A stretch of DNA of 52,004 nt from Candidatus Peregrinibacteria bacterium (GTDB taxonomy: Bacteria; Patescibacteriota; Gracilibacteria; Peribacterales; Peribacteraceae): NCBI GenBank assembly GCA_037143575.1, contig JBAWYM010000003.1:1-52004 (forward strand), given 5' to 3'. The notes beneath the pieces were generated by a model, which was not told the origin of the DNA, did no database searches, and worked only from the letters and a program-made list of their open reading frames with translations. The position numbers and the translations under genes are program-made. Shown piece after piece: positions 17,360 to 18,991 of the stretch (position 1 is the first letter of the stretch; the number at the start of each line of letters is the position of its first letter).

Positions 17360-18991
17360 AAGGAAATGTTCCATCCGCAGGTTCTCCTACGGATACCTTG
17401 TTACGACTTACTCCCAATCAGCAGTTTCACCGTGGCACCGCCCCTTGCGGGTAACGGTTCTTCGGGTGCTCCTGCCTTTCATGAGTTGACGGGCGGTGAG
17501 TACAAGACCCAGGAACGTATTCACCGTAGCGTGGCTGATCTACGGTTACTAGCGATTCCAGCTTCATGAAGTCGAGTTGCAGACTTCAATCCGGACTGAG
17601 ACCGACTTTGAGGGATTTGCTTACCTTCGCAGGTTCGCTGCCCGCTGTATCGGCCATTGTAGCATGGGTGTAGCCCCAGGCATAAAGGACACGCTGATCT
17701 GACGTCATCCCCACCTTCCTCCGCCTTGGAGGCGGCAGTCTCTTGTGAAAAGACAACACAAGATGAGGGTTGCGCTCGTTCGCTGACTTAACAGTACACC
17801 TCAAGGCACGAGCTGACGACGACCGTGCATCACCTGTCTTCGGGTTCCTTGCGGCACTTCCCCGTTTCCGGGGAATTCCCGAGATGTCAAACCTGGGTGA
17901 GGTTCTCCGCTTACTATCGAATTAAACCCCATGCTCCACCGCTTGTGTGGGTCCCCGTCTATTCCTTTGAGTTTTAGCCTTGCGGCCGTACTTCCCAGGC
18001 GGCGTGCTTACCGCGTAAGCTAAGGCACTGAGAGCGATTGAGCTCCCAACACCGAGCACGCATCGTTTAGGGCGTGGACTACCCGGGTATCTAATCCGGT
18101 TTGCTCCCCACGCTTTCGTCCCTGAGTGTCAGTACATTCCTAGCATCCTGCCTTCGCTTTCGGCGTTCTATCGTGGATCAACGGATTTGACCCCTACACA
18201 CGATATTCCAGATGCCTCTGAATGACTCAATTCCTGCCGTTTCCAGTGCCAACGCAACGTTGAGCGTCGCGCTTTGACACCAGACAAACAGGATCACCTA
18301 CGGACGCTTTACGCCCAGTAATTCCGAGTAACGCTTGCACCTTCTGTCTTACCGCGGCTGCTGGCACAGAATTAGCCGGTGCTTTCTCCTGAGGTACCGT
18401 CAAAAATTTCGTCCCTCAGAACAGAAGTTTACGCCCCAGAGGGGTTTCATCCTTCACGCGGTGTCGCTCCGTCAGGCTTTCGCCCATTGCGGAAGATTCC
18501 TCACTGCTGCCTCCCGTAGGAGTATGGGCCGTGTCTCAGTCCCATTCTGGCTGGTCGATCTCTCAATCCAGCTACCCGTCATAGTCTTGGTGAGCCGTTA
18601 CCTCACCAACTAACTGATAGGCCGCAGGCCCCTCCCAAACCGATAAATCTTTACTCGACTCCTCTTTACACTCTGCTGTTTGCAGATCGTCGGAGAAATG
18701 GAGAATGTATAATGTATAATTGAGAATTCTTATTTCATTCTCCATTCTACATTTTCAATTCTACATTCCTCAGGCGCTCTCTCAGCATCGATATCCATCG
18801 ACAGGAGTGCAAGGAGGAGCCGAGACTATCCGGTATTAGCTCCGCTTTCGCGGGGTTATCCCTGAGTTTGGGGCAGGTACCAACGTGTTACGCAGCCGTC
18901 CGCCGCTCCTGTATTGCTACAGGCGCGCGACTTGCATGTGTTAGGCGCACCGCTAGCGTTCACTCTGAGCCAGGATCAAACTCTTCAAATG
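17360..18991 (-). rRNA. rrs: 16S ribosomal RNA with a ~170-nt insertion, not linked to 23S
   Basis: 27F site at 18965-18984; universal 338, 515, 806 and 1492 motifs; helix 45 GGAGAACC. End positions approximate. Confidence 0.99.
18654..18824 (-). other. Intervening-sequence-like extended hairpin in the 16S V2 region
   Basis: Lies between CTAATACCGGATAGT and TAAAGATTTATCG; ~25-bp imperfect outer stem enclosing heptamer arms. Confidence 0.9.

Follow-up and report, generated by a model that had tools for sequence, protein, structure and literature searches.

The stretch of DNA analysed here (the window) comprises 52,004 nucleotides (nt) of contig JBAWYM010000003.1 from a Candidatus Peregrinibacteria bacterium (Peribacteraceae; assembly GCA_037143575.1) and carries a 16S rRNA gene whose V2 region is enlarged by an insertion with a hairpin of tandem seven-nucleotide units at its core. 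The genome under study, G000, possesses 1.64 Mb in 85 contigs with 53% G+C and is 99.7% complete. Its 16S gene lies on the reverse strand (17359..18991) and matches Rfam RF00177 (SSU_rRNA_bacteria) over the full length of the model (positions 1-1533, 1463 bits); a blastn search with the gene reveals no other copy in the genome. Alignment to this covariance model with cmscan leaves ~150 nt unaligned, located in the loop of the first hairpin that follows helix 8, a hairpin that we take to be helix 9. According to cmscan, the relatives and the sequence itself, the insertion is 163 nt long (18658..18820, reverse strand), replaces the tetraloop of this first V2 hairpin and is bounded by the base pairs CUCG (18824-18821) and CGAG (18657-18654). 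An earlier reading of the window, made from the sequence only, had described a V2 hairpin extended to ~171 nt (18654-18824); the extension is real, its length includes the 4-bp base stem on each side.

The V2 region was sought in 40 relatives, for which 30 16S loci were returned and examined. Between two conserved motifs it measures 51-54 nt in 19 of the 30 loci versus 213 nt in G000. The hairpin of the short-form relatives consists of a stem of 3-4 bp and a tetraloop, with the flanks of the insertion site 4-8 nt apart. Among the other loci, the search pattern began too far upstream in five, found no match in four and met a longer native hairpin in three (G038, G040 and G027, from other families of the same class). 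The insertion is present in G000 and absent from these relatives, and as extra sequence at the tip of an rRNA helix that related rRNA genes lack it resembles a classical intervening sequence (IVS). Both of its junctions are contained in a 397-nt contig of the DNA run X1 (18566-18962) with 0 differences and a depth of 19.8, comparable with the depths of 18.8 and 17.1 of the X1 contigs at the two ends of the compared stretch; X1 may be the sample of origin, and the agreement rules out a chimera of one assembler only. Scanning metagenomes for the 23-nt junction between 16S and insert gives 0 matches and provides neither a closer relative nor an empty/filled pair. At the same helix tip, the 16S gene of G003, from another genus of the same family, carries an unrelated hairpin of ~85 nt that is not obviously built of heptamers (L021, 1615-1700).

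The insert folds into one long branched hairpin (-70.3 kcal/mol over 201 nt, z -5.85), its complementary ends forming a long stem as in classical IVSs. The outer parts, as delimited by the fold and given in RNA sense on the reverse strand, are a 5' part (18768..18820) with one strand of the outer stem and a small side hairpin (18787-18802), and a 3' part (18658..18695) pairing with it; the outer stem has ~17 bp with one mismatch. Both are unique, since the outer 38 and 53 nt have no other match in the genome (38 and 49 nt were searched, the latter being 18772-18820). The core (18696-18767) consists of two 28-nt arms of four tandem heptamers each, of the types (GTAGAAT)n and (ATTCTAC)n. On the forward strand the left arm reads GGAGAAT GTATAAT GTATAAT TGAGAAT (18700..18727, preceded by AAAT at 18696-18699), the loop has 9 nt (18728..18736) and the right arm reads ATTCTCC ATTCTAC ATTTTCA ATTCTAC followed by ATT (18737..18767). 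The arms agree at 22 of 28 positions, and the loop has no open reading frame (ORF), in agreement with the ORF-less insertion of the sequence-only reading. The insert sits at the tip of a surface hairpin of the 16S rRNA and consists of a heptamer hairpin nested within ~90 nt of unique sequence that forms a stem. In the window, SSU rRNA is the only Rfam family to reach its gathering score, and the insert does not qualify as a group I or group II intron.

A sister element of the core lies at the end of sufC (6235..7020, forward strand; TIGR01978, 292.9 bits against a cut-off of 212.8). It spans 7004..7088 on the forward strand, with arms at 7008-7035 and 7057-7084 and a loop of 21 nt, and the stop codon of sufC (7018-7020) falls in its left arm. 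The two 19-nt matches on which the sequence-only reading had based this kinship (7004-7022 with 18696-18714, and 7070-7088 with 18736-18754) are both exact. Nor are they common words, as genome-wide they occur exactly at the 16S and sufC loci solely, with related inexact arms at 11 more; with up to three mismatches they give 6 and 7 matches, all in these two loci, compared with 0.01 and 0.04 expected from shuffled sequences. In both copies the first 19-mer keeps the same register and covers the two units at the outer end of the left arm. The second occupies the outer end of its arm in the sufC copy but the inner end in the 16S copy, which points to a small vocabulary of units and not to specially close kinship. 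The insert core belongs to the same repeat family as the sufC element, and the link to rRNA intervening sequences proposed on this basis is supported. At the corresponding position behind sufC, three of 28 relatives (G010, G011 and G012) have hairpins made of other units, and three more (G003, G004 and G017) have arrays that resemble arms.

The genome scan of G000 yields 13 such elements, all with a left arm of the GTAGAAT type and a right arm of the ATTCTAC type: the sufC copy, the 16S copy, one copy in the 23S rRNA gene, one copy on contig C68 that encloses a gene, and about nine copies in tight gene junctions. Arms have the full 28 nt in ten of the 13, with a shorter or degenerate arm in three (C15, C68 and C7b); loops comprise 5-68 nt, or 367 nt where an ORF is present. 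The stability of the hairpins is without strand bias, the difference between strands ranging from -7.9 to +2.0 kcal/mol unlinked to the direction of transcription. The class occurs in 17 of 61 genomes of the family, with 23 pattern hits in G000, 119 in G073, 29 in G064 and 0 in 44 genomes, while the reversed pattern used as control gives 0-1 hits. The 119 matches of G073 lie in 1.3 Mb, a several-fold expansion, in an assembly that is 88% complete and does not include its rRNA genes. Gene-flanking pairs occur as well: nusB of G000 has GTAGAAT hairpins on both sides, followed by rnc and then a cassette with a 23S_rRNA_IVP gene and arms of another unit (L039, C40:12245-13980), and G064 has a similar arrangement, with a GTAGAAT hairpin on each side of gatC (L207).

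The 23S rRNA gene of G000 has 4586 nt (C7:35995-40580), with the 5S gene downstream; the 16S gene is unlinked to both, on a separate contig. Near its 5' end the 23S gene possesses a 144-nt insertion in a hairpin loop (approximately C7:40274-40417; model positions ~163-170), with the element C7:40326-40389 as its core and a fold of -80.4 kcal/mol (z -10.4). Its layout repeats that of the 16S insert, with a unique outer stem, a side hairpin and an inner heptamer stem. An ORF-less member of the family is present at helix tips of both large rRNA genes. The 23S genes of relatives contain heptamer hairpins of other units, including one at the same 5' site in G072; the 23S gene of G064 has at least four arrays. 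In G032 the 16S hairpin next to the site of the insert carries a heptamer array of a different unit. For the rRNA genes, 0.38% of the genome, two copies out of 13 are an excess over the whole genome (binomial about 0.001), but against the non-coding share alone, roughly estimated at 5-10% (a crude ORF cover of G000 is 94.7%), the value is about 0.1-0.2 and not significant. As the excess is nominal and lost against non-coding DNA, we make no claim of rRNA targeting; of the proposed link between rRNA intervening sequences and repeats at mRNA boundaries, the common family stands, enlarged by the 23S copy and the gene-bearing copy, and rRNA may be either targeted by it or merely tolerant of it. 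Another insertion of the 23S gene, 554 nt long and located at LSU model position ~1977 (L050 2320-2880, C7), holds a group I intron (Rfam, 62.3 bits). A self-complementary (AACAGTT/AACTGTT)n array lies at the 3' end of this insertion and recurs in part within the intron; the 16S insert of G032 is made of this unit too.

The gene-bearing copy connects the hairpins to a protein. Between arms at C68:1473-1493 and 1868-1895 lies an intact ORF of 121 codons (C68:1503-1868), a full-length member of PF05635 (23S_rRNA_IVP, 98.4 bits) and TIGR02436 (four helix bundle protein, 109.6 bits), a protein family (hereafter IVP) first found inside 23S intervening sequences. G000 contains eight PF05635 genes, all between inverted arrays of tandem short units of 7-9 nt, mostly heptamers, and each gene with its own unit. 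Inverted-flank scores of the eight reach 19-37, compared with a null maximum of 18 (n=400 random segments). IVP genes are present in 35 of 41 genomes of the same family. For 29 loci from 29 relatives, one of them with a flank too short to score, all 28 scorable loci score 14-35 (null 95th percentile 13, maximum 19). A set from many phyla comprises 80 loci fetched with the IVP alignment, 75 of them scorable; 62 exceed the null 95th percentile and 31 the null maximum, and among the 47 loci scoring at least 18 the arm period is 7 in 42 and 8 in five. The design of an IVP gene between heptamer arrays is general.

Arms and protein of the GTAGAAT class occur together beyond G000. In G010, another genus, arms of this class enclose an IVP that has 55% identity to the C68 protein and lies at a different locus, while 24 other IVPs share 19-29% identity with that protein. 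The exact unit is kept at 55% protein identity, which argues that the unit is conserved as the protein drifts and that arms and protein travel together. The 16S copy shows the two inverted arms of such a cassette, with four units each; an IVP ORF between such arms is found only in the C68:1473-1895 and G010:C6 copies, and the 16S copy is classed as an ORF-less derivative. IVP is the only protein found tied to the arms. G000 further possesses hairpin classes with the heptamers GTAGTGR, TTAGTTA, AAGCTTT, AGCTCAA and GATCCAA, and in most of these one or two copies at the most bear an IVP gene while several are empty. The TTAGTTA / TAACTAA unit builds a third heptamer-array hairpin of the window, in the spacer upstream of sufC (5766..5861, forward strand); about nine hairpins of this class occur genome-wide, and no IVP gene with the TTAGTTA unit was seen. 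IVP cassettes with nearly identical downstream arms (CTAACAAGCTAACAAGCTAACCAGCTA) occur in G000 (L043, C15:24176-24490) and G022 (L059), two genera, and apparently follow the same upstream gene in both, which suggests that some cassettes persist at one locus from genus to genus. A link to diversity-generating retroelements, with Avd as an accessory protein, is ruled out for G000, as PF00078 (reverse transcriptase) has no match in this genome. A tRNA gene search of the window found none.

Taken as a whole, the 16S insert is probably an ORF-less IVP-type rRNA intervening sequence that has lost its gene or never had one. Its identity as an IVP-type intervening sequence is highly probable, and its excision from the 16S rRNA is slightly favoured, by analogy, because IVSs of the same build that were tested in other bacteria are cut. 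The insert would fold in the pre-16S transcript into a long hairpin directed away from the subunit, and RNase III would cut in the stem with no religation; the mature 16S rRNA would thereby be split in two, with ~170-220 nt on the 5' side and ~1.3 kb on the 3' side held together by base pairs. The RNase III gene rnc is intact with both domains (C40:12853-13539).

Several observations weigh against this interpretation. Complementarity between the two arms of a copy does not exceed that between arms of different copies (22.2 versus 22.9 of 28 positions, permutation p 0.98) and loops are unrelated between copies, a poor fit to copy-and-paste of one master hairpin or to strong selection for pairing. 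Signs of mobility, namely target-site duplications and a transposase, were not seen at the elements. The outer 91 nt of the 16S insert are not part of any repeat family, so the insert is a composite and not simply one element. Its heptamer hairpin is the weakest of the family (-15.7 kcal/mol in rRNA sense) and contains a 4x4 internal loop according to the fold; such a weak and imperfect stem makes the 16S copy a less obvious substrate of RNase III than classical IVSs. PF05635 has no match in G032, which carries a heptamer array in its 16S gene; at 90% completeness, this genome appears neither to support nor to refute a dependence on IVP. Finally, three metatranscriptome runs of one study (X2-X4) cover conserved parts of the 16S gene only, with many differences and essentially nothing on the insert. 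Joints in X3 that skip the insert carry other letters between them and therefore derive from other organisms; coming from other organisms, the three runs are silent on excision.

The imperfect 16S stem makes it nearly as likely as excision that the hairpin, of the same origin, is retained in the mature 16S rRNA as a lineage-specific expansion segment projecting from the small subunit, an outcome to which we assign somewhat less than an even chance. Eukaryotic 18S rRNA has an expansion segment at helix 9, and the tip in question naturally bears longer hairpins in G038, G040 and G027 and the ~85-nt unrelated hairpin in G003. Against retention, the total helix is long, with ~17 bp in the outer stem alone, and an intact rnc is available in the genome. 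Tested IVSs of the same architecture, moreover, are excised by RNase III (accessible text of PMC4990558), as are further cases.

A wider proposal concerns the origin of the family: heptamer-armed IVP cassettes would be pan-bacterial self-propagating elements, with the IVP recognising its own 7-nt unit and the gene-less hairpins as non-autonomous copies. Under this proposal the 12 gene-less GTAGAAT hairpins of G000, including both rRNA copies, would be served in trans by the single C68 IVP, and the arms would grow by single units added on each side of a break, which would explain the unmatched arms and the unrelated loops. We regard it as rather unlikely, and keep it in view because each unit class has few IVP genes and several empty hairpins and because G010 retains the exact unit next to an IVP of 55% identity.

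Still less likely, arrays may grow or be rebuilt in place by slippage, addition of units at a break or gene conversion, with the rRNA copies as local products. Such growth is compatible with the lack of copy-specific complementarity and with the unrelated loops, with the different units or arm-like arrays in the slot after sufC of six relatives (G010-G012; G003, G004 and G017) and with the different units at the same 23S site in G000 and G072; the number of heptamers also differs among strains of Coxiella (accessible text of PMC4990558). It does not account for the recurrence of one unit, always in arms of four units, at 13 unrelated sites and in 17 of the 61 genomes of the family, nor for GTAGAAT arms travelling with one IVP lineage to different loci. 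Recurrence at 13 sites together with this travel requires some form of transfer between sites.

The hairpins could also be repetitive extragenic palindromes, single or as paired hairpin-forming REPINs (REP/REPIN), moved by a REP-associated tyrosine transposase (RAYT, a Y1 transposase), the IVP gene being a mere passenger. This is very improbable, although the main unit contains GTAG, the head motif of many REPs, and G000 has seven matches to Y1_Tnp (PF01797). None of the seven loci has a GTAGAAT-type array within 2.5 kb, and none lies beside a period-7 hairpin of the genome-wide list; the unit classes AAGCTTT and GATCCAA are devoid of GTAG, and the tie between IVP and arrays holds for eight of eight genes in G000 and for most loci in many phyla. 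An association of the arrays with RAYT is consequently rejected, as no Y1 transposase gene is flanked by GTAGAAT repeats. The open frame that contains the best Y1_Tnp match (L031, C41:3094-3435) has 1077 codons, an unusually great length for a protein of the IS200/RAYT type. Miniature inverted-repeat transposable elements are ruled out by the absence of a flanking direct repeat, the unrelated loops and the absence of a transposase. That a repeat-induced chimera put the hairpin into the 16S contig is extremely improbable: misassembly in metagenome bins is common at repeats and at rRNA genes, but the independently built X1 contig, possibly from the sample of origin, crosses both junctions without a difference at its neighbours' depth, the 16S gene lies mid-way in a 52-kb contig and the insert preserves the base pairs of the helix.

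How rRNA intervening sequences originated, and what the protein encoded by some of them does, are questions dating from the early 1990s. G000 holds side by side a gene-bearing copy, a dozen gene-less copies with one in each large rRNA gene, and seven further IVP genes with units of their own. This is the pattern of an autonomous element with its dependants, and it suggests the hypothesis that IVP binds its own heptamer array. If the elements propagate themselves, the rRNA intervening sequences known since 1990-93 would be merely their most visible landing sites. A 163-nt insert in V2 alters the length of amplicons, and the lineage can drop out of 16S surveys. If the insert is excised, fragmented 16S rRNA would occur in a CPR (Candidate Phyla Radiation) group, the Peregrinibacteria, reported to be without 16S insertions in the accessible text of one survey (PMC11270868).

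An account of IVP genes between inverted heptamer arrays was not found in the literature searched, apart from the heptamers of Coxiella, and the broader architecture appears undescribed there. Leptospira possesses an ORF-bearing 23S IVS akin to that of Coxiella. The IVS in helix 45 of the Coxiella burnetii 23S rRNA contains an S23p ORF and a terminal stem of 28 bp; the ORF is preceded by GACAGAT heptamers, two or three in tandem, of which the first is the site of cleavage by RNase III (PMC4990558, accessible text). The elements of G000 share with the IVS as described there the 28-bp length of the terminal stem, the heptamer arms, a PF05635 ORF in the full-length form and an rRNA site at a hairpin tip. 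In contrast to it, the rRNA copies of G000 are ORF-less, one being located in 16S and one near the 5' end of 23S, and the same arms are also present at about 10 gene junctions and around a free-standing IVP gene.

ORF-less IVSs are known from the 23S rRNA of Salmonella and Yersinia (helices 25 and 45) and from the 16S rRNA of Helicobacter canis, Caedibacter and Campylobacter. These short forms are hairpins of 100-250 nt at helix tips and, where tested, are excised by RNase III to leave fragmented rRNA; to our knowledge they have not been described as tandem heptamers or as members of a genome-wide repeat family. Insertions in rRNA genes of the CPR were reportedly described by Brown et al. in 2015. 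A later survey of CPR genomes (Tsurumaki et al. 2024, PMC11270868) describes, in its accessible text, 16S and 23S insertions with 23S_rRNA_IVP ORFs as well as ORF-less versions, finds no insertion in 16S genes of Peregrinibacteria, does not use the word "repeat" and does not link the insertions to dispersed intergenic hairpins. G000 agrees with that text as a CPR-type genome with inserted rRNA genes, and differs from it by a 16S insertion in a Peregrinibacteria genome that is kin to dispersed hairpins.

Like REP/REPIN elements, the hairpins are short imperfect palindromes with many copies, located at gene ends and with GTAG in the unit. Unlike them, they have no associated RAYT, their arms are tandem 7-nt arrays and the associated gene encodes a four-helix-bundle protein, not a transposase. 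Heptanucleotide repeats form hairpins inside a structured RNA in the tRNA-Leu intron of Nostoc. Orphan tandem 7-nt units in intergenic regions are represented by the TAACTGA repeats of Beggiatoaceae and the short tandemly repeated repetitive (STRR) sequences of cyanobacteria (PMC4679880), with 169 direct sets and one inverted set and 0 occurrences each of "intervening sequence", "four-helix" and "S23" in the accessible text. The GTAGAAT elements resemble these, as presented there, in tandem 7-nt intergenic units near the beginnings or ends of genes; most arrays in that text are direct and IVP is not mentioned, whereas the arms of G000 are inverted. By comparison with all of these, the 16S insert is of a known kind, an rRNA intervening sequence, and what is new is an intervening sequence that is ORF-less, present in both 16S and 23S, and part of a dispersed family whose complete member carries an IVP gene.

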